From contig JBBKWS010000012.1 in assembly GCA_037969075.1 (NCBI GenBank), positions 1 through 29,991 on the forward strand: DNA of 29,991 nucleotides, written 5' to 3'. The notes below the pieces were generated by a model that was given only the letters and a program-made list of their open reading frames with translations, was not told where the DNA came from and did not search any database. Origin of the DNA: Bdellovibrionales bacterium (GTDB lineage Bacteria > Bdellovibrionota > Bdellovibrionia > Bdellovibrionales > UBA840). Below are positions 9,056 to 18,388 of the stretch, piece after piece. Position 1 is the stretch's first letter. Each line of letters begins with the position of its first letter. Made by a program: the position numbers and the translations under genes.

Positions 9056-11365
9056 TTACCCAGCTCTACGATTAAACTCATCCACTTCATGCAAATGAAC
9101 CCAATCATCAAAGCCAGTTTTCCAAATAAAGGTGGATCTGGTGATATGCCCTGCTTCCAATGCTTTCTTGATATCATCAAAAGAGTATGGTCCCATGGAT
9201 TCGCCTTTAGGGCCGTAGATAAACCACTCATTGGCAAAGGAGCTACGTTGCACATCTTCAGTCACTGACTGTTTCGGCGGAGAAGTCGGAGGTTTTGAAT
9301 TTCTTCTATCTACTCCTAGAAAGCCTATCATTGGCTTCATTTCTGTTTCGCCCTCATTACAGATCAAAGCAAGTCTTGGATCAAAATCTCCGTGTGCCAT
9401 TTTTACTTTGATTTGCTCTAAGCTAAATGGACCTGTTTTTGCGCCCGTTAATGGGTCAGCAATTACATGATACGTTGCAGGGCTTGGCATATTAACCACT
9501 GTCTTCTCTAAACTCTCTACCTTTTCTTCTTCACTAAGAAATTCAGGTGCCACTTGATTTTGGATCGTAGCAATCACATCTGCTGATAACGTTGTCTGCA
9601 TTCCACTTTCATTCATATATCCAATAACTCGGCAAACCCGCAAATGATTTGCTTTACCTTTAACTTGAACTTTTAATTGTGGCCCACATACGACTTTCTT
9701 TTTTTCAATCAAAATTTGAGTGGCATCACTCACTAAAATATCCGCACCAAAAACTTTCGTGGCTGCTTCGATTCGGCTGGCCTGATTTACGGTGTCCCCG
9801 ATGCATGTGTATTCTAAACGCTCTTCTGAGCCAATATTTCCTGCTACAACTTCGCCTGTGTGTAAGCCTATTCCGATCTTTAATTCTGATTTTCCTTCAA
9901 GCACTCGCTTTTCATTAAACGTCTTCATGAAATCACGCATCTCAAGACTAGCCATTACCGCATTGTAGGCATCGTCAGGTTTAGTTTCGGGAGTTCCCCA
10001 AACCGCCATGATCGCATCCCCTATATACTTATCTACAATGCCATGCCACTTATCAATGATCTTAACCATTCCGGTTAGATATTCATTTAGTAGTTGCACC
10101 ACTTCATCGGGGCTCATGTTTTCGCTCATTGAAGTAAAACCACGAATATCACTAAATAAAACGGTGGCAATTTTTCTCTCCCCGCCTAGCTTGATTTCGC
10201 CCGACAGAAGTTTTGCTGCAATCTCTTTAGAGTGAAACTTATTAAATGCAGTCTTGATTTTTTCTCTTTCTTTTAAACCTAAAGCCATATCGTTAAATGC
10301 AAGTGTTAGAGCGCCTAACTCATCACTAGAGGTTTTCTTGAGACTGACGTCATAATTTCCTTCAATAATTTTTGATGTAGCAAGATATAGCCTACGAAGT
10401 GGCTCAGTTAAACTATGAGAAAAACTGTAATTAATAAAAAAGGCAAAACAGACAATAATAAGCATAACTAAAAAAGAGCGGTACTGGACCTGTCTAATTG
10501 TAGCCAATGCTTTTGATTTTGGTACTTGTGCAACCACACTGAGTCCTGCCAAATCTAATTTGCGGTAAGCTCCCAACACTGGCTCATTGCTACTCGTTAC
10601 ATATTCCATCTGATGATTATTAAACTTAGATTGTAGTAGATGCTGCACAATTGGCTGATCAGAGACTTTTAATCCTTGATAAATCTTATGAGATTCAACA
10701 GGACTAGAATGCGCCAAAACTTCGCCATTTGCTGCCACTACATAAGAGGTTATTTCTTTATATTCAGGCAGCGCACTACTTAAAGTACTTTGTCTAATCT
10801 CGGCCCTAAACAGCCATTCTTGCTGATCTTTTGTCGTAGATACAAACCCTACACTTAAAATAGGCCTATTTAATTGTTTCGCAGAATTGATGACAATCAC
10901 TTCATTGGCGGTCCCACCAGTTACTTCAAGTATTTCTTTTAGTGGCAGCTCTTCAAGCTGTCTTTTATCAATGTCGTACTCGCTAAGAGAAGTATCTAAC
11001 ACACTTGAGAAGTAAAGCTCTACTTCACCTTTTTTAGATTTCTTATAAATGTAAAATGACAAGAAACTATCAAATCCCGAAAGAATTCTGTGTACGGTGG
11101 TTTTAGTTTGTTCTGATTGATAACCACCATCATTTACCACCTGCGCCATAAGCTTCATCTTGGCTGTAACATCTTCTAAATTACTTTTAATTTTAACACT
11201 AGCATTCAATACCGAATCTTTATTGTTTACTTGAATACGATTGATAGACTCTTCAAGGTATAAATCGCTAGCAATATAAACCACCGAACCAATAGCAATC
11301 ACAATGATTGAGGTCACCACTAGTAGTAGTTTTGAAGTAATTCCTAATTTATAACCTAACTTCAT
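9056..11365 (-). CDS. Membrane class III adenylate cyclase: TM-Cache-like sensor-TM-HAMP-cyclase-2x GYF_2 (DUF4339)
   Basis: HAMP (PLRRL...DELGALTLAFNDM); cyclase LFSDIRGFT, DKYIGDAIMA, GIGLHTG, EYTCIGDTVNQASRIE, VKGK; C-terminal GPFSLEQI and GPYSFDDI...IWKTGFDDW repeats. Confidence 0.92.
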   Translation of the reverse strand: MKLGYKLGITSKLLLVVTSIIVIAIGSVVYIASDLYLEESINRIQVNNKDSVLNASVKIKSNLEDVTAKMKLMAQVVNDGGYQSEQTKTTVHRILSGFDSFLSFYIYKKSKKGEVELYFSSVLDTSLSEYDIDKRQLEELPLKEILEVTGGTANEVIVINSAKQLNRPILSVGFVSTTKDQQEWLFRAEIRQSTLSSALPEYKEITSYVVAANGEVLAHSSPVESHKIYQGLKVSDQPIVQHLLQSKFNNHQMEYVTSSNEPVLGAYRKLDLAGLSVVAQVPKSKALATIRQVQYRSFLVMLIIVCFAFFINYSFSHSLTEPLRRLYLATSKIIEGNYDVSLKKTSSDELGALTLAFNDMALGLKEREKIKTAFNKFHSKEIAAKLLSGEIKLGGERKIATVLFSDIRGFTSMSENMSPDEVVQLLNEYLTGMVKIIDKWHGIVDKYIGDAIMAVWGTPETKPDDAYNAVMASLEMRDFMKTFNEKRVLEGKSELKIGIGLHTGEVVAGNIGSEERLEYTCIGDTVNQASRIEAATKVFGADILVSDATQILIEKKKVVCGPQLKVQVKGKANHLRVCRVIGYMNESGMQTTLSADVIATIQNQVAPEFLSEEEKVESLEKTVVNMPSPATYHVIADPLTGAKTGPFSLEQIKVKMAHGDFDPRLALICNEGETEMKPMIGFLGVDRRNSKPPTSPPKQSVTEDVQRSSFANEWFIYGPKGESMGPYSFDDIKKALEAGHITRSTFIWKTGFDDWVHLHEVDEFNRRAG

Positions 11366-11468: not shown

Positions 11469-13592
11469 ATGAAGAACTTTCTTATCCTATTTCCAGTACT
11501 TACAATTTTAATATGGGCAAGCTTTAGCCTATGGGAGGACTTTGACAAGAAGGCCCCTACAAAAAATAGCCAGCAAGTAGAAACCGTTGGGTACATAACC
11601 ACAAGTGCGAATACAGTAAAACGAAAATCAGAAGTTGATCCACTTTGGTACAATCTATCTTCACAAGAATATGTTTTTGATAAAGATGTCATTAAAACTG
11701 GCGTTGATAGCTCTACAACCATTGTTTTAAATGACAAAACAATAATAAGTCTTGATGAAAACTCATTGGTAGCCCTTGAAAAAACAAACTCAAGCTTTCA
11801 AATTGATTTAAAGCTCGGTGATTTTTCAACTAAAAATACATCTGAAAATGTAATTTTAAAAGTAAAAGACACTATCATCCAAGGTAATCAAGCTGATTTA
11901 TTTATATCAACAGACCTAGATAATAATACACAAGTTCAGGTACAAAAAGGTAATGCCACCATTACCGATAAAAACAACCAACAAATCAAAATCGACCGCA
12001 ACAAACTCTTAGAAATTAGCGCAAACGGCAAGGTGCAAGCCCTACAAACAGTCGTATTACTAAGTTCTCCCGAGAACAATGCAAAACTAAAAGACCCTAG
12101 GTTACAAGTATCCTATCCTTTCACCTGGGCTGTATTAGTTGACGATGTAAAACAAGAGACCCTAGAAATTTCACAAAATGAAGACTTTAGTGGTCCGACT
12201 ACTAAGTTAAAACGCGGGCATCAGGGTATTGATGGAAATATTCAGCAAGGGATAAACTACTGGCGTGTCAGCTGGAGTCGACTTGATCCAACCACTAACA
12301 AACAAAAGATTTTTTATTCTGTAACGAGAAAAATATACCTAGAAGGGGATGACAGGGTAATTCTTAGTTCACCTAAAGACAATACTGCTTTTGAATTTCT
12401 TCCTGGAGAACAAAATATCAACTTCGAATGGACCACAAAAGAAGCGTCAGAATATTTTATAATTGAGATCTCTAGTACACCAAACTTTAGAACAATCATC
12501 AAAAATGAAAAAATAAATATGAAATCATTTTCTATTAAAGATTTAAACTCCGCCGGCTATTACTGGAGAGTCAGGGCCTTTGATAAAAACAATACCTTAC
12601 AGGGGCTCAGTCAAACGAGATCGTTTACAGTAAAAAATATTTTCCCAAGCTATCCTACCCTGTTAAGCCCATCATCACAGTTAGTATGGTCATTAAACGA
12701 ACCTCTTCTTGTAGAATGGAAACCTTATGACAAAGCCAATATGTATGTACTCACCATTGCAAAAGATAGTGAGTTTAAAAACATTTCTTATACCCAGAAG
12801 TTAAGTGACGTAAAAGCAACTTGGGCTTGGTCAGAGGAAGGCAAATACTACTGGCAAGTAGCGGCTTATAAAGATGATCTACGGATATCTGAGAGTACAA
12901 TTGATACTTTCTCGATCAAACCAGCATTAAAAAAAGACAATATCACGCTACTACTACCAAAAAATCAAGAGCTCATACCTAGAGAAAAACGCAAACAAGT
13001 TGATCCTGTAGTCTTTGAGTGGAAACCACAGATGCAGGTTACCCCTAAATATCAAATCCACTTAAGCACATCACCTAATCTTAGCGAGGGGAAACTTTAT
13101 GGACCCATCAGTTCTCTACGTCACAACATCTCTGTAGATACCGCAGGTACATACTATTGGAAAGTAGATTGGCTCAATGAAAAAAACGAAGTGAAGTTTA
13201 CAAGCCCGATTCAGGTCTTTCAATTGCAATTCACCACTTCACTACCATCTGTTATTACTGAAACCCCGATTGATAAATCTATCTTTTACACACCAATAGA
13301 TGCCAAAATAGAGTTTCAATGGCAAAAAGTTGAAGAAGCTCTTCAATACCGACTTACCATTGAAGCCTGGAATGATAGGTTGCAAACAAAAGTTCCATAT
13401 AGAGATGTAAAAACAACTAGTAATACGAATGCGGCGAATTTAGAGAAAGTTCCTCCAGGGAAATACTTTTGGAAAATAAGAGCTATAGACTCTGACAAAC
13501 TAGAAGGAACATGGAGCGTTGAGAAGACCTTCGATGTAGAATTAAAAGAAGCACTAGGTGCACCACGCCTTAGACCACCAGTTGTAAAATAA
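11469..13592 (+). CDS. FecR-domain protein with N-terminal anchor/signal and five Fn3/Ig-like repeats
   Basis: FecR-like VKRK....W...D.IKTG.DS...I.L.D...I.LDENSLV. Five repeats of L..P...F.W......Y...IS....F...G.YYW.V.A. Confidence 0.82.
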   Translation: MKNFLILFPVLTILIWASFSLWEDFDKKAPTKNSQQVETVGYITTSANTVKRKSEVDPLWYNLSSQEYVFDKDVIKTGVDSSTTIVLNDKTIISLDENSLVALEKTNSSFQIDLKLGDFSTKNTSENVILKVKDTIIQGNQADLFISTDLDNNTQVQVQKGNATITDKNNQQIKIDRNKLLEISANGKVQALQTVVLLSSPENNAKLKDPRLQVSYPFTWAVLVDDVKQETLEISQNEDFSGPTTKLKRGHQGIDGNIQQGINYWRVSWSRLDPTTNKQKIFYSVTRKIYLEGDDRVILSSPKDNTAFEFLPGEQNINFEWTTKEASEYFIIEISSTPNFRTIIKNEKINMKSFSIKDLNSAGYYWRVRAFDKNNTLQGLSQTRSFTVKNIFPSYPTLLSPSSQLVWSLNEPLLVEWKPYDKANMYVLTIAKDSEFKNISYTQKLSDVKATWAWSEEGKYYWQVAAYKDDLRISESTIDTFSIKPALKKDNITLLLPKNQELIPREKRKQVDPVVFEWKPQMQVTPKYQIHLSTSPNLSEGKLYGPISSLRHNISVDTAGTYYWKVDWLNEKNEVKFTSPIQVFQLQFTTSLPSVITETPIDKSIFYTPIDAKIEFQWQKVEEALQYRLTIEAWNDRLQTKVPYRDVKTTSNTNAANLEKVPPGKYFWKIRAIDSDKLEGTWSVEKTFDVELKEALGAPRLRPPVVK

Positions 13593-13632
13593 GTTCTGGA
13601 TTTTTTGTTAAACTCATCTAATACTTAAAGAA

Positions 13633-15111
13633 ATGATATTATTATACGTTCTTACATCGATTTGTTTTAGCCGCATGGTTGATTTTAGCTGGGAGCCTTT
13701 CAATGATGCCAAGGCCTATCAAATACAAGTAGCCAGTGACACTGACTTTACAAAGACATTACAAAAAAAACTTACCAAATCCCCGTCTTACTCAGTCGAA
13801 TTGGGTTATGGGCTTTATTATTACCGCGTAAGAGCCATTGATAACTCTAAGCGCCCAGGAGTATGGTCAGAAACCGAGCGTATTATTGTCAAGCCCTACT
13901 CCCCTGAGCTCTTATTGCCAAAAGATGCTGACGTGGTTAGAAGGTTTGAAAAAGATATAAAAGTAGTATTCACCTGGAAGTCTACTCCTGATATTAAAAA
14001 ATTTCAGATATCTATCGCTAAGGATACAGGTGAAACCATATTAGAAGAAGAAGTAAACGGTAAAAAATGGACTTGGACACCTGAAAAGGAAGGTCGCTAT
14101 CGCTGGAAAGTAAAAGCTCTTTTTGATTCTACCAACACAAGCGAATACTCTGAGGATCGAATTTTTGATGTAGAAAGAAGAAATTTAAACGAACCACTTT
14201 TAATTAAGCCTGATGATAAAGGTTACTTTCCAGCGTACAGAAAAATAAAATTTGAATGGGAAACATTCCCTCCCTCTACTCTTAGCCATATTGAAATTGA
14301 AGGACCAGAAACATACAAAAAACAGAATCTTCGTCTACTTGACCATAGCATTGAGGGTCTACAGCCTGGAGATTACAAGTGGCGCGTACTAAGTAGTGAA
14401 TCAAAAAACGCACCCACCATTGCTAGTGAATGGAAAAGCTTTACCGTAAATGAAGAAGTTTTATCTAACCAAGATTATTATATAGGAATGAACTTTGCCT
14501 TATTAAAAAATGAAACCAGTTATAAAACTTCAAGGACCACTGCCACAAGCACCAATCTTGATGAAAAAGATAGTTTGTTTCAATACACTTGGTATGCGAA
14601 TTGGCAAATGTCTAAAACTAGTTCGCTATTCTTACAAATGAAAAAATCTGAATATGACTTCTCTACACAACTAGACCGTAATGCGATAGATATTGCATAT
14701 TTTGCTAGAATTGGAGTACCTAACTTTCAACAGGTATTCTTTATAGGTTTAAGACAGAGCCAGTACATTGAAGAATGGAGAGAGGCCAGTGTTCAAACAA
14801 ATATCTTATCAGGCCGAGGGCCCATTTTAGGCTTTAAAATGTTAGGTCGCCTGCCGTCTGACCACAGACTACACATTGATTTTTTATATCACAAAATAGA
14901 AAGTTCGCAGCAAAACTTTGGAGATTTAAAAGGCGACGCCTACGAATTTAAATTAGGCTTATCAAAAAAACTGTGGCATAAAATCTGGTGGAAAATTGAA
15001 GCTGGATTTAACAAAGAATTAATAAAGTTTACAAATAACACGCAAGGGACAACAAAATGGAATTCAGAAGAATTCGAACCTATAAGTATTGGTTTCGAAT
15101 ACAGGCACTGA
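13633..15111 (+). CDS. Secreted protein with three Fn3-like repeats and a C-terminal outer-membrane beta-barrel
   Basis: Signal peptide; FSW..YQIQVA..YYYRVRA, FTW..YRWKVKA and FEW..YKWRV repeats; amphipathic strands ending SIGFEYRH. Confidence 0.75.
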   Translation: MILLYVLTSICFSRMVDFSWEPFNDAKAYQIQVASDTDFTKTLQKKLTKSPSYSVELGYGLYYYRVRAIDNSKRPGVWSETERIIVKPYSPELLLPKDADVVRRFEKDIKVVFTWKSTPDIKKFQISIAKDTGETILEEEVNGKKWTWTPEKEGRYRWKVKALFDSTNTSEYSEDRIFDVERRNLNEPLLIKPDDKGYFPAYRKIKFEWETFPPSTLSHIEIEGPETYKKQNLRLLDHSIEGLQPGDYKWRVLSSESKNAPTIASEWKSFTVNEEVLSNQDYYIGMNFALLKNETSYKTSRTTATSTNLDEKDSLFQYTWYANWQMSKTSSLFLQMKKSEYDFSTQLDRNAIDIAYFARIGVPNFQQVFFIGLRQSQYIEEWREASVQTNILSGRGPILGFKMLGRLPSDHRLHIDFLYHKIESSQQNFGDLKGDAYEFKLGLSKKLWHKIWWKIEAGFNKELIKFTNNTQGTTKWNSEEFEPISIGFEYRH

Positions 15112-15713
15112 TACTATTAGTATCAAGCCTTTGTAGTGCAGCCAGTATTAAAACTATTAGCCTTGAGAGCGGTCTTTCAGGCTCAATTTCATATACTGAT
15201 TATGACGGCGCGCATTTTGGCGCAGGCACCGGCTACCAATATGGTTTATATTCTGTGTGGGATATAAAAAAAGACTGGGAGTTATCCGTATCTATTCAAA
15301 ATATTACATTAGAACAAGCGCTGTACACCAGAGCCGACGTTTCTAATACCGAAAGCATTCAGCATTTACAACAAAAGTGGACCCTACTGGGCGTTGGCGC
15401 CCAGTGGACCAAAGACTTTTGGTTTTACGAATACGCCGGAGGATTTGCCATTGGTGACAATAGTCAAATTGGCCTTGATACCGAAACAGCCTCTAGCAAT
15501 AAACGAACTAATCTACGAGCAAGAACTACGAACTTCTTTTTTGTGGGCGCTAGTATTGGCTATCAAAAAGAGATTTATAAAAGATGGAATGTAGTCAGCA
15601 GACTACAGACGTTTTTTGTTTTAGATTCAATCTATAAGACAGACGGCTTTGATGATAATTTCTTTGCCGTCTTGCCCTTTATGTTTAATATCGGGTTTGA
15701 ATACAATTATTGA
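15057..15713 (+). CDS. Small outer-membrane beta-barrel protein (about 8 strands)
   Basis: Hydrophobic signal region LILLVSSLCSA; alternating aromatic/Gly strands; terminal FNIGFEYNY beta-signal. Start uncertain. Confidence 0.72.
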   Translation: MEFRRIRTYKYWFRIQALILLVSSLCSAASIKTISLESGLSGSISYTDYDGAHFGAGTGYQYGLYSVWDIKKDWELSVSIQNITLEQALYTRADVSNTESIQHLQQKWTLLGVGAQWTKDFWFYEYAGGFAIGDNSQIGLDTETASSNKRTNLRARTTNFFFVGASIGYQKEIYKRWNVVSRLQTFFVLDSIYKTDGFDDNFFAVLPFMFNIGFEYNY

Positions 15714-15728
15714 ACCATTTGGTTTAAG

Positions 15729-16586
15729 TTATTGGCAGCCTTCATTTTTAATTCCAAGAGGCTTATACTTACCAAACGTCTTTTCGGTCATCAACTTGTG
15801 ATGCCAAAAACATAAAAGCCTTAAGTTATTTGCAGTGTGATTACCCCCCAATGCCTGTGGTTTTATATGATCATATTGCAAGAGGTGCTTTGATTCGCAG
15901 TTTTGATACGAGCATATGCCCTTATCTCTTTTAAAAACTTGGCGCTTCACAATAGCAGAAATAGATTTTTTTACTGTTGCCGCTTGCGCCGGTGGTGATT
16001 TTTTAGGCTTTGGTTGTTTTAGCATTTTATCTGCTAAAATTTCTAATAGCTCTGCGTAGTTCATACTTGGGTTTATGTGGGACAACTGCGATTTTAAGTC
16101 GTTTAGTTTTTGTTGTAAGTCTTCACTGATTACAATTTTTAACTCTATTTTATTGTTTCCTAGCTCTCTTTGTTTTTCTGCTGGCGCTAATTCGGGTGCA
16201 AGACCTGCTAAAACTTTTGCGGTTTGCCGGTAGCTTTTGCCCGAGATTTTCTCTAAGATGTCTTGTTTATCTTGTGCTGTGGCATTGGTTTTTCTAAAAA
16301 ATACGTTTGCCTGGGCTAGTGTTGATAGATTTAGTTCCCCCTTTTTTACCTTATCTTCAATTCCTGGTAATTCCGTTAATAGTCTTGCTGATTGAATTCT
16401 TCTATTAGCGGCTCCTTCTTCATAGCCCAGTTCACGGGTGGTAAAATCAAAGAGTGAAGAAAAGCCAAGTTCAAGATAATATTTTCGTTTATCTAATTCA
16501 CTTAATAATTTGATTACCTCTATTGTTAAAGATTTTTCATTAGCTACGGTTTGTTTTAGTTTTAAAATCAGTTGTTGGTTAGTCAT
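15729..16586 (-). CDS. HNH endonuclease with helical DUF222-like N-terminal domain
   Basis: N-terminal LGFSSLFDF..ELGY.EG.A.RRI.SARL; C-terminal VFKRDKGICSYQNCES..LQYDHIKP..LGG.....NLRLLCFWHH (Zn-binding HNH); GAGG SD. Confidence 0.88.
   Translation of the reverse strand: MTNQQLILKLKQTVANEKSLTIEVIKLLSELDKRKYYLELGFSSLFDFTTRELGYEEGAANRRIQSARLLTELPGIEDKVKKGELNLSTLAQANVFFRKTNATAQDKQDILEKISGKSYRQTAKVLAGLAPELAPAEKQRELGNNKIELKIVISEDLQQKLNDLKSQLSHINPSMNYAELLEILADKMLKQPKPKKSPPAQAATVKKSISAIVKRQVFKRDKGICSYQNCESKHLLQYDHIKPQALGGNHTANNLRLLCFWHHKLMTEKTFGKYKPLGIKNEGCQ
15976..15992 (-). repeat. Inverted repeat copy A, inside the HNH coding linker
   Basis: GTTGCCGCTTGCGCCGG; its reverse complement matches 16833..16849 at 16 of 17 positions. 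Confidence 0.85.
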
Positions 16587-16646
16587 TTTTTACCTCTTAA
16601 AAAAAGATTACCCCAACTTTTAAAATTGAATTTTTAGCTTTATGTA

Positions 16647-16714
16647 CCGGACAGTCGTGGCCGGTTTTATTTTTGATAATAGCAATCTATAACCTCAACC
16701 TGCGACTGGTCCGG
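16647..16714 (-). ncRNA. Long GC-rich stem-loop upstream of the HNH gene (candidate structured RNA or DNA hairpin)
   Basis: Minus strand reads CCGGAC(C)AGUCG-CA-GGUU-GA-GGUU...AACC-GGCC-A-CGACU-GUCCGG. Two G-U pairs form only on this strand. Confidence 0.45.
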
Positions 16715-16832
16715 CCCAGAGCAGCTTAGATAAGCAAATTACAGATCCGGCTCTTAAAACTAAAATTAGAGATCAAAAACCCACGTCAAATCTTTTTTTA
16801 TTTTTGCAGCGCAGATAATTTTATAAACACAT

Positions 16833-16849
16833 CCGGCGCAAGCGGTAAC
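16833..16849 (+). repeat. Inverted repeat copy B, upstream of the HNH gene
   Basis: CCGGCGCAAGCGGTAAC; exact 13-bp core CCGGCGCAAGCGG shared in inverted orientation with 15980..15992. Confidence 0.85.
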
Positions 16850-16885
16850 TCAGAAAACTAATAATTATCTATAGCCAATACCTAG

Positions 16886-18388
16886 TTAATTCACTTTTTT
16901 AGGAGGAAGCTTCTTTGGAAGCTTTCTTGGAACTTTTTTAGATCTCACCTTTTTAGATTTTTTCTTTTCATAAACAGCTTTTGGCTCTGGATCATTCCAT
17001 CCCTGGTAGCCATAGTCACTAGCGTATCCTTGCCATTTACCCTCTTGCATAACAATCACTTCTACCCGGCGGTTCTTCTGGCGCCCTTGGTAGTTACCGT
17101 TATCAGCAATTGGCAAAGACTCGCCGTAACCAACGGATCTGATTTCGGAAGATTTAATATTATGATTTTCGATTAGATATTTCTCAACTGTCTTCGCTCT
17201 TTGCTGACTTAGTTTTTTATTATAAGATTCACTTCCAACAGAGTCTGTATGTCCTGCTACCACGATTTCAGAATAGCCTTTTTCAAGAACTCGGTTTGCT
17301 ACCGCATCCAATTCTTTTTTTGCTTCCCCAACCGCACGGTAACTTGATGCAAATTTAAATTCAACTTTTGCTAGTTTATAAATTTCACCTTTTTCAATTT
17401 GTTCGATCTCTGGCAGATCCTCATCAAACTCCTCTATCTCAGCAACCTCAATGTCTTCACTAGTAATCGCAGGCATTGGCGTAGGCTTTGGCTTATCTTT
17501 AATAAGTGGTCCGATGGCATAATTTAGACCTGCATACAGTCGTAAATCGGGAGATGCTGACCCATTAAATAGCTCTGTCGACACACCCGCGTGAAACGAT
17601 AAGTTGGTTGTACGATCATATTTTAAACCAATAAGAGCCTCTGTGCTACTCTCTTCTCTGGCGGTATTATTAGGTCTTCCCTCAGATGGCCATCCCGCAA
17701 AAACTTCTGTAATTATTTTTGTATCGATAGATGGAAATAAATAACTGGCAGCAATTGATGCAATGAATGAGTCGCCGTAAGGTTCAATGTCTGGGTCAAT
17801 TTGACTTCCAGCCTGCCTAAAGCGATACCCTAAATTACTACCTACTGCAAAATTTCCAAGAGTCATATCGCCAGCAAGCTCTACAACGGTAACAAAACCA
17901 GCGTTTTTACCCAGGTATGGATTATCATCCACCATATTAAAATCTGTACTTAATACAGCCGCAAGCCCGTGCTTATCATCGCCAAAAAATCTATACTTTG
18001 TATTTAGCCTAACCTCAGTCAATCCTCTGTTAACAAACTCTCCGTGATCAAGATCACTATCTACATTCTGATCAATTAGATGTGGTAAATTAATCCCGAC
18101 ATCCCAATTTTTTCCTAAACCTAAACCTATATTTAAATCTCCATATAATAATGAATCATTATAACTACTTCTGTTTTGTATAGAGGTTGCATCTTCAAAA
18201 TAAGGCAGAGTATTTACAGCATAATTAATAAAATACCCAAAATTCATCACCCATGGCTCTAGAGTTTCAGAGGACTGTACGGTCACAAAGTCGATGCCAT
18301 TTGTCGTAGGGTTGAAATTTTGAAATTCTCCACCAACCACGTTTGCGTATATACTCTGTGTCCATATGAGAATAAGTAAGTATGCCAT
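16886..18388 (-). CDS. OmpA-family outer-membrane protein: N-terminal beta-barrel, acidic linker, peptidoglycan-binding OmpA domain, Lys-rich tail
   Basis: GHTDSVGSESYNKKLSQQRA and GYGES.PIADN....GRQKNRRVE motifs; barrel region ending YAGLNY; signal peptide. Confidence 0.9.
   Translation of the reverse strand: MAYLLILIWTQSIYANVVGGEFQNFNPTTNGIDFVTVQSSETLEPWVMNFGYFINYAVNTLPYFEDATSIQNRSSYNDSLLYGDLNIGLGLGKNWDVGINLPHLIDQNVDSDLDHGEFVNRGLTEVRLNTKYRFFGDDKHGLAAVLSTDFNMVDDNPYLGKNAGFVTVVELAGDMTLGNFAVGSNLGYRFRQAGSQIDPDIEPYGDSFIASIAASYLFPSIDTKIITEVFAGWPSEGRPNNTAREESSTEALIGLKYDRTTNLSFHAGVSTELFNGSASPDLRLYAGLNYAIGPLIKDKPKPTPMPAITSEDIEVAEIEEFDEDLPEIEQIEKGEIYKLAKVEFKFASSYRAVGEAKKELDAVANRVLEKGYSEIVVAGHTDSVGSESYNKKLSQQRAKTVEKYLIENHNIKSSEIRSVGYGESLPIADNGNYQGRQKNRRVEVIVMQEGKWQGYASDYGYQGWNDPEPKAVYEKKKSKKVRSKKVPRKLPKKLPPKKVN

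Follow-up and report, generated by a model that had tools for sequence, protein, structure and literature searches.

The window analyzed here comprises 29,991 nucleotides of contig JBBKWS010000012.1 from a Bdellovibrionales bacterium (genome G000), and the part of it that concerns us is a mobile cassette composed of an upstream control region and a single nuclease gene (Table 1). In a congeneric genome (G001, contig C62) the genes flanking this cassette abut each other with overlapping stop codons and nothing lies between them, and therefore the DNA from approximately 15714 to 16885 is an insertion. The G001 copy of the cassette, 81% identical, is found after ffh instead; it has lost the DNA between the promoter region and the start of the gene, the start itself is gone, and its upstream dyad is poorly matched to its own linker. 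There is no transposase or recombinase in the cassette, a single gene being present between the host genes, and neither a target-site duplication nor defined ends were found in the comparison with G001, where identity is only about 75%. The empty G001 junction has no palindrome of the kind described below, and the carrier has two. The segment 16855-16875 of the window matches this empty junction in inverted orientation at 18 of 21 bases (13 exact; E 0.067 in a small search; A/T-rich) and may be a relic of insertion or a chance match. The adjoining part of the window (11469-15713) encodes FecR-domain proteins, proteins with fibronectin/Ig-like repeats and a probable outer-membrane protein, is adjoined by an adenylate cyclase gene (9056-11365) and is apparently an ordinary host locus.

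Of 41 related genomes, 26 contain homologs of the nuclease, the largest number of matches in one genome being 33, and at E ≤1e-40 homologs are present in 81 of 301 genomes of the order. The named homologs belong to Bdellovibrionota, the family is multi-copy and dispersed, and the orientation of the flanking genes is mixed across it. No family match was obtained in phage and plasmid collections, in metagenome contigs searched by pattern or in genome contigs searched with a single-protein pattern. A broken divergent member (G000:C155:25992-26374; L002, L352), lying between a xerD-like gene and lexA, the latter about 2.8 kb away, has an internal deletion after approximately 25 codons, and a 15-bp inverted repeat that is perfect, non-palindromic and found nowhere else in the genome joins its deletion junction (26215) and its upstream DNA (26374).

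Table 1. Positions in the window of the cassette, its neighbors, and the parts of the gene, protein and control region
Feature	Position	Strand	Remarks
Mobile cassette (upstream control region and nuclease gene), ~1.17 kb	15714..16885	-	Flanked by two convergent host genes, with a stop codon on either side
Left host gene, 218 aa	15057..15713	+	No Pfam match; convergent with the cassette; present in 7/7 family genomes
Right host gene, OmpA-family	16886..18388	-	PF00691; reads into the cassette; ortholog in G001
285-aa gene	15729..16586	-	Long helix / ParB-type HTH / RHH-like / linker / HNH nuclease
Residues 15-132	16191..16544	-	Fold like the DNA-binding domains of KorB, ParB, Spo0J and SopB
Residues 144-198	15993..16157	-	Strand-helix-helix, RHH-like dimerization element
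HNH nuclease domain, residues 202-275	15762..15983	-	PF01844 above cut-off
Linker copy: A-tract and degenerate 18-bp palindrome	15974..16008 (dyad 15979-15996)	-	Read as KKSPPAQAAT
Upstream palindrome copy	16829..16849	-	241-263 bases 5' of the start codon
Conserved box (TTGAC, four bases, T-run) after an A/T tract	16775-16789	-	~200 bases 5' of the start

The encoded protein and its control region

The model of the 285-aa protein has a mean pLDDT of 91.9. Foldseek with this model returned nothing at E ≤0.001, P1 ParB occupying ranks 3, 4 and 7 with E of 0.04-0.15, and VIA-align comparisons of residues 15-132 with KorB, ParB, Spo0J and SopB gave Z of 7.0 (rmsd 3.5, 99 aligned), 6.7, 6.1, 5.5 and 5.3. 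These scores are middling, one family recurs in them, and the domain is predicted to have a ParB/KorB-like fold. Residues 144-198 resemble TacA2 and NikR weakly (Z 4.9), and the HNH part gave Z of 8.3 to GVE2 HNH and 8.0 to EcoKMcrA. The residues C225, C230, H240, N254 and C259 are invariant among 51 homologs, and the HNH active site appears to be intact; PADLOC gave a weak match at most. A homodimer prediction for residues 1-200 scored 0.75 compared with 0.00 for the best control, with at least 90% of contacts agreeing between runs, a pLDDT of 85 and the strand 145-158 within the interface, a mark that 20 of 30 solved homodimers attain, as does 1 of 23 single chains. The protein is predicted to form a two-fold symmetric homodimer with a ParB-type HTH, and the high score may come from its likeness to known RHH/ParB dimers. 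An earlier reading of this DNA, made from the sequence alone, had placed one of the two repeats described below in a linker between a helical DUF222-like domain and an HNH domain; the linker position and the HNH domain stand, while the DUF222 label corresponds to a weak match below the cut-off (PF02720, 13.3 versus 24.4 bits, E 0.051). DUF222 matches at E ≤0.05 were obtained for 10 of 51 homologs, the best with E 3e-6. The length of the linker is hypervariable in homologs (13-168 aa).

In the control region, TTGAC is present at -270 to -175 in 122 of 171 loci, a count made without a shuffle control, and is shared with the G001 copy. The box that contains it and a second one at 16600-16625 (A-run followed by CCATGnTA) are, family-wide, loose inverted copies of each other placed at a fixed distance of 158-181 bases, and the DNA between them is unconserved and unstructured: its folding has a mean z of -0.32 in 45 genomes, 5 of which are below -2, and a z of -1.2 in the window. 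A CCGGA motif that seemed to recur in this gap is not enriched there (8/49 versus 6.5), and no Rfam family reached its gathering score in this region of the window. A LexA box of Bdellovibrio has been described (PMC3323433, PMC8565304, available portions). The box TTAC-N3-GTAA occurs upstream of 20 of 171 loci compared with 28 in shuffles and is absent from the window promoter region. A few family members (L006, L015; see also L350) have in their upstream DNA a TTAC-containing motif resembling the one before lexA of G000, so a sub-clade may be LexA-controlled.

A worn palindrome in two copies

The sequence-only reading had described the segment 15976-15992 as the reverse complement of 16833-16849, with 16 of 17 positions in agreement, a core of 13 bp that is exact and a loose resemblance continuing on one side, and this is what we find, the likeness amounting to 84% over 25 nt. 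As it also stated, the internal copy translates as PAQAAT; it does so within the 285-aa ORF 16586..15729(-), in a linker of low pLDDT (residues 200-205 below 50). The 13-mer core occurs twice in the window, where 0.01 is expected, and the genome scan that had been proposed detected it three times in 2.5 Mb. Among 3,000 block shuffles of the cassette, 2 contained an exact inverted repeat of 13 bp in which 9 or more bases are G/C (285 of 3,000 if any composition is allowed), and a GC-rich one is present in 1 of 2,029 genome tiles of equal length, the window pair itself straddling two tiles. The 13-mer expectation, the shuffles and the tiles rule out a chance origin of the pair. The GC-GCAA-GC mini-hairpin that had been recognized in the core finds no support as a structure, the folding z of the two strands carrying the motif being +0.44 and +0.93. 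A GNRA mini-hairpin or terminator was rejected as a general role on account of weak folds and the absence of loops in the family palindromes.

Near-matches elsewhere in G000 identify both copies as worn versions of an 18-bp DNA palindrome, each of them departing from the perfect dyad at 4 of 18 positions, and because both are degenerate versions of one palindrome, their "inverted" arrangement is partly automatic. Seven sites in G000 are within 4 mismatches of this palindrome compared with 0-1 in three shuffled genomes. A perfect palindrome is located at G000:C97:1196, and other near-copies are found on C11, C65, C159 and C95, the last one probably by chance. The C97 and C11 copies are two variants of one junction after polA, the C65 copy follows a nitronate monooxygenase gene and the C159 copy a type III polyketide synthase-like gene. 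The A-tract flank of the linker is also present at the orphan copies, the C97 copy reads in frame as KKSPPAPAVT, near the linker consensus of close homologs, and an asymmetric base change is common to both window copies and C65. The orthologous polA and monooxygenase junctions of G001 have no palindrome and different downstream genes.

Three further observations were made in this genome and sample. The 3' region of polA is present twice in G000 (C11 and C97, 89% identity), which is consistent with the 5.7% contamination of G000. A shared element of 45-60 bases recurs at C97:1058-1118 and on C11, C53 (twice), C65, C141, C159 (twice), C182 and C188, and at C97 and C65 it stands after the orphan palindrome and upstream of lineage-specific hypothetical genes. 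Related cassettes on short contigs of the same sample (run X1; window 15975-16064 and 16582-16651) have variant palindrome arms and variant upstream DNA.

Covariation, symmetry and probable copying across the family

The linkers of homologs contain a lineage-specific loop-less palindrome of 16-22 bp, often with a matching copy upstream of the promoter region. Perfect zero-spacer palindromes number 20 in 171 linkers (17,178 bp) versus 0.4 in shuffles and 0 in N-terminal controls, and linker palindromes with a spacer of 0-1 are present in 14 of 68 genomes; genome-wide, the commonest spacer class is the 4-base loop. Most upstream copies lie 210-400 bases 5' of the start, just outside the TTGAC box.

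For each full-length locus, the covariation of the two copies was scored as the best ungapped match, in either orientation, between the linker DNA and the 485 bases upstream, with a threshold of at least 18. The discovery set started from 143 loci with a match, of which 105 were full-length with enough flank and 96 distinct, and 2 partial ones were dropped to leave 94; the new set, scored with the unchanged threshold, comprised 81 loci, 80 of them with a match and 3 dropped, which left 77 loci in 47 genomes from unrelated samples. The sequence-only reading had proposed to check whether the linker copy and the upstream copy co-vary locus by locus, and they do. In the discovery set the threshold was passed at 26 of the 94 loci when each linker was paired with its own upstream DNA, by 163 of 1,060 pairs formed within a genome and by 11 of 7,682 formed across genomes; without the genome G010 the numbers are 17 of 70, 12 of 508 for same-genome paralogs and 11 of 4,322 for other genomes. 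In the new genomes 22 of 77 own pairs (17 of 47 genomes) passed it compared with 14 of 98 same-genome and 80 of 5,754 cross-genome pairs, the relatives contained in these counts being non-independent samples. Among the controls in the new genomes, linker versus downstream DNA gave 3 of 77 and N-terminal coding DNA 0 of 77, and when one locus per genome was taken, a mean of 11.6 out of 47 were above the threshold versus 0.64 for deranged pairs. The pair exceeds the threshold in only 48 of 171 loci, and about three quarters show none. Downstream copies are near background in both sets (2/94 in the discovery set), and therefore the motif is not a marker of both cassette ends. The motif sequence is lineage-specific, and paralogs in one genome carry different motifs, as the few same-genome cross-matches outside G010 indicate.

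Fifty-one linker sites, chosen by their 6-bp core alone, have a symmetry at positions 5-8 of 0.47-0.61 compared with 0.24-0.36 for swapped arms and 0.24-0.34 for the rest of the gene; an outer arm is about twice as likely to match its own partner as to match an arm taken from another genome. The mismatches between arms have no strand polarity (G.T 6, A.C 11, other 20). In orientation, the 48 pairs are divided into 20 direct, 15 inverted and 13 symmetric ones that fit either. Asymmetric bases, or at least six non-palindromic bases, are common to both copies in 19 of 25 genomes, a count biased by the picking of segments for identity and by one locus that gives 6 of 17 shared positions; in the L310 pair, linker and upstream DNA share 50 bases. 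Such shared asymmetric and non-palindromic bases point to sequence having been physically copied from one of the two sites to the other. The recognition helix is nearly constant while the palindrome arms differ, as read by eye from the alignment, and no co-evolution of helix and motif was visible on a quick tree of 59 chosen loci. With the helix constant and the arms changing, drift through copying is a better fit than a strict read-out of sequence, and what the protein reads may be just the conserved center and ends of the palindrome, or its structure.

A divergent clade has a different helix and a different motif, which is arrayed upstream of the genes and present in up to four places inside them. 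Its 29 matches in G010 are accompanied by 415 copies of a one-way 10-base motif (6 in the control), which forms oriented tandem arrays upstream of the genes as well as occupying the intragenic places. In the first 805 kb of G010, 58 of 132 listed sites have a family gene at a distance of up to 1.5 kb, a zone that makes up 4.7% of this DNA, and 74 are farther from any; the remote ones are orphan intergenic arrays, sites in large repetitive genes and an array that precedes a Y1 transposase gene. Three orphan tandem arrays of G010 (L341, L342 and L343; 15-50 units with a period of 16-20) fill intergenic gaps with no family gene near. A CRISPR-like nature of the G010 array was rejected, as its units repeat one another and there are no unique spacers.

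Interpretation and relation to known systems

Self-recognition best accommodates the combination of a predicted ParB-type dimer, an apparently intact HNH domain and a loop-less dyad located both in the control region and in the linker of the gene. We hold, with confidence little above even, that the encoded protein itself reads both copies as sites in double-stranded DNA and that the cassette is a transposase-free selfish element. This was one of the three options of the sequence-only reading, and it is the best supported of them: the ParB-like domain, the predicted dimer, the loop-less dyads, the covariation and the empty site argue for it, while the binding by the protein is what we infer. 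The chief difficulty for this option is the recognition helix that hardly changes while the arms do. It is also weakened by the absence of a pair at about three quarters of the loci, the 4 mismatches of each window copy, the poor match within the G001 copy, the 74 remote sites of G010, the middling fold scores, the bias in the count of shared asymmetric bases, the dependence among relatives and the failure to find a target-site duplication or defined ends. The dimer would bind the dyad, the upstream copy serving as an operator or end marker and the linker copy as a second site, and the tethered HNH domain would nick near the bound dyad. Repair templated by the neighboring arm, copy or allele would then homogenize the sites, the same repair would seed orphan copies and tandem arrays, and repair copying would also carry the cassette into new intergenic junctions in a homing-like spread. 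Nicking followed by repair from the nearest similar DNA would explain the matched arms and copies, the orphans, the arrays, the hypervariable linkers and the transposase-free spread.

An unlikely alternative has the palindromes acting as structures, either cruciforms or single-strand hairpins, that are recognized by shape by the HNH domain or a copying intermediate, the symmetry and not the sequence being selected. It would account for arms that match their own partner instead of a consensus and are not tracked by the recognition helix, but the centers are self-complementary even though a hairpin would leave them unpaired, shuffled sequences fold as well as the window copies do (z -0.46 to +1.13), the mismatches lack strand polarity and the G010 motif is a one-way half-site.

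The copies could also be REP-like repeats spread in trans by a Y1 (RAYT/IS200-type) transposase and carried as passengers in a tolerant linker and upstream gap. The same genomes do contain multi-copy Y1 genes (7 matches in G000 and 17 in G010), 23 motif copies stand upstream of one of those in G010, the motif also occurs as intergenic orphans and in arrays, and intragenic REPs are described in the available portion of PMC3733652. However, 8 of the 9 G010 Y1 loci examined lack an upstream copy and the Y1 genes have a different repeated motif, none of the seven G000 palindrome sites shares a contig with a Y1 match, same-genome paralogs carry different motifs, and in G021 four of the six copies of one motif are at two nuclease loci, all of which makes this origin rather improbable. 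The Y1/IS200-type genes of G010, G021, G018 and G000 (L184-L213) have their own one-way upstream motifs of 12-14 bases, which are of two types by clade.

It is quite improbable that the copies are intrinsic terminators insulating the cassette from read-through of the flanking genes. The linker copy passes a terminator scan on the plus strand, with a T-run, 4 of its 5 departures from a perfect 22-base dyad are G.U-compatible on that strand, the genes on either side of the cassette are convergent, and stop codons precede the orphan copies. Even so, of the two copies only that in the linker forms a hairpin, and it is a weak one (-8.9 kcal/mol, z -0.46); in addition, the family palindromes are loop-less, 20 of the 48 pairs are direct and the flanking genes of the family are in mixed orientation.

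Little credence is due to the notion that an upstream-region RNA pairs with the linker of the mRNA or guides the nuclease. The matches are locus-specific and include non-palindromic bases, a fixed gap of 160-180 bases precedes the gene, and there is a weak likeness to IscB in the HNH part; against this, where a pair is direct and non-palindromic a sense transcript could not base-pair with the mRNA, the IscB match reaches 28.5 versus a cut-off of 175 bits, and the orientation of the pairs, the lack of an Rfam family above threshold and the lack of structure in the gap all tell against the RNA option as the sequence-only reading had framed it. Its remaining option, in which recombination at the repeats would invert a segment and so part the N-terminal half from the nuclease, is hardly credible: the pair is inverted at the window locus and in 15 of 48 pairs, and the broken member on C155 has its perfect 15-bp inverted repeat, but the cassette has no recombinase, direct pairs are as common, none of 225 loci with both halves (from 266 examined, not de-duplicated and chosen largely by whole-protein matches) has them on opposite strands, and three DNA runs of one sample gave no inverted joints, on contigs from which rare inversions could escape.

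Returning to self-recognition by the encoded protein, we consider it possible, if doubtful, that the family represents an undescribed class in which a single ParB-HTH/RHH/HNH homodimer encodes its own recognition site in its linker and nicks beside it, and repair copies the site, giving orphan palindromes, tandem arrays and in-frame expansions of the linker, and the element itself to new junctions; gene and site would diversify as a unit and drive genome turnover on a local scale in predatory bacteria. In several groups of bacteria, few unexplained repeats are as common as the DUF222-like HNH genes, whose transposase-free multiplication is puzzling. At each locus the paired co-varying palindromes yield a candidate substrate directly from the genome, which opens binding, nicking and mobility to direct testing. 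Were the favored reading true, the family would amount to a natural collection of small, sequence-specific nickases (~280 aa), and it would also generate tandem repeats and variable gene junctions in Bdellovibrionota.

DNA-binding domains of the ParB family recognize palindromic DNA with two-fold symmetry (PMC7383237, available portion). ParB-parS, Noc-NBS, the KorB operator and SopB-sopC resemble the present case in the fold of residues 15-132 and in a dimer, predicted here, on a short loop-less palindrome in several copies (same source and portion). The window protein differs in that no N-terminal CTPase (ParBc) domain was matched and only 14 residues precede the HTH domain, an RHH-like part and an HNH nuclease follow it, the candidate site is inside the protein's own gene and its sequence drifts between paralogs, and there is no ParA partner in the cassette. 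The RNA-guided HNH systems, OMEGA IscB and TIGR-TasH, likewise combine HNH with upstream non-coding DNA or a repeat array, but no RuvC or Nop domain was matched here, the NF040563 match being that of the HNH part only, and neither a structured RNA nor a dual-repeat array of the kind described in the available portion of PMC12045711 was found. REP/REPIN-RAYT systems also have short palindromes around a cognate mobile gene as well as in intergenic and in-frame intragenic positions (PMC3733652, in the same portion). In contrast, the cognate gene here is HNH and not a Y1 tyrosine transposase, the copy numbers are mostly low, and the palindromes have no loops and no GTAG/CGTC tag, the zero-spacer class being dominant. 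Flanking of Y1 genes by the repeats, a feature of REP/RAYT, is seen at 1 of 9 G010 Y1 loci and on 0 of 7 G000 Y1 contigs.

Free-standing HNH homing endonucleases have a DNA-binding domain tethered to an HNH nickase, are present or absent at intergenic positions, need no transposase and cut a site that is missing from the carrier allele. The cassette is like them in its tethered HNH, its presence or absence at intergenic junctions and its lack of a transposase, and unlike them in that its candidate site is inside the element, the empty G001 junction has no palindrome and its loci are numerous and dispersed within a genome.

Among described families, the mycobacterial 13E12 (DUF222-HNH) repeats come nearest. 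In the available portions of PMC3381160, PMC13157036 and PMC10589994, 13E12/REP13E12 are called insertion elements and are placed at inversion breakpoints, and no self-palindrome is mentioned for 13E12; nor was a description of paired self-palindromes in this HNH family found in the literature searched, which consisted of main texts, few of them from subscription journals. Both families consist of multi-copy dispersed HNH genes, and a fraction of the present homologs match DUF222 (PF02720). The differences are that the window protein is shorter and below the DUF222 cut-off, and that 13E12 is mostly LexA-controlled, whereas the LexA box is not enriched in the family described here. We conclude that the paired palindromes are real and family-wide, and we regard the cassette as a variant of mobile HNH elements with a candidate self-site open to testing.
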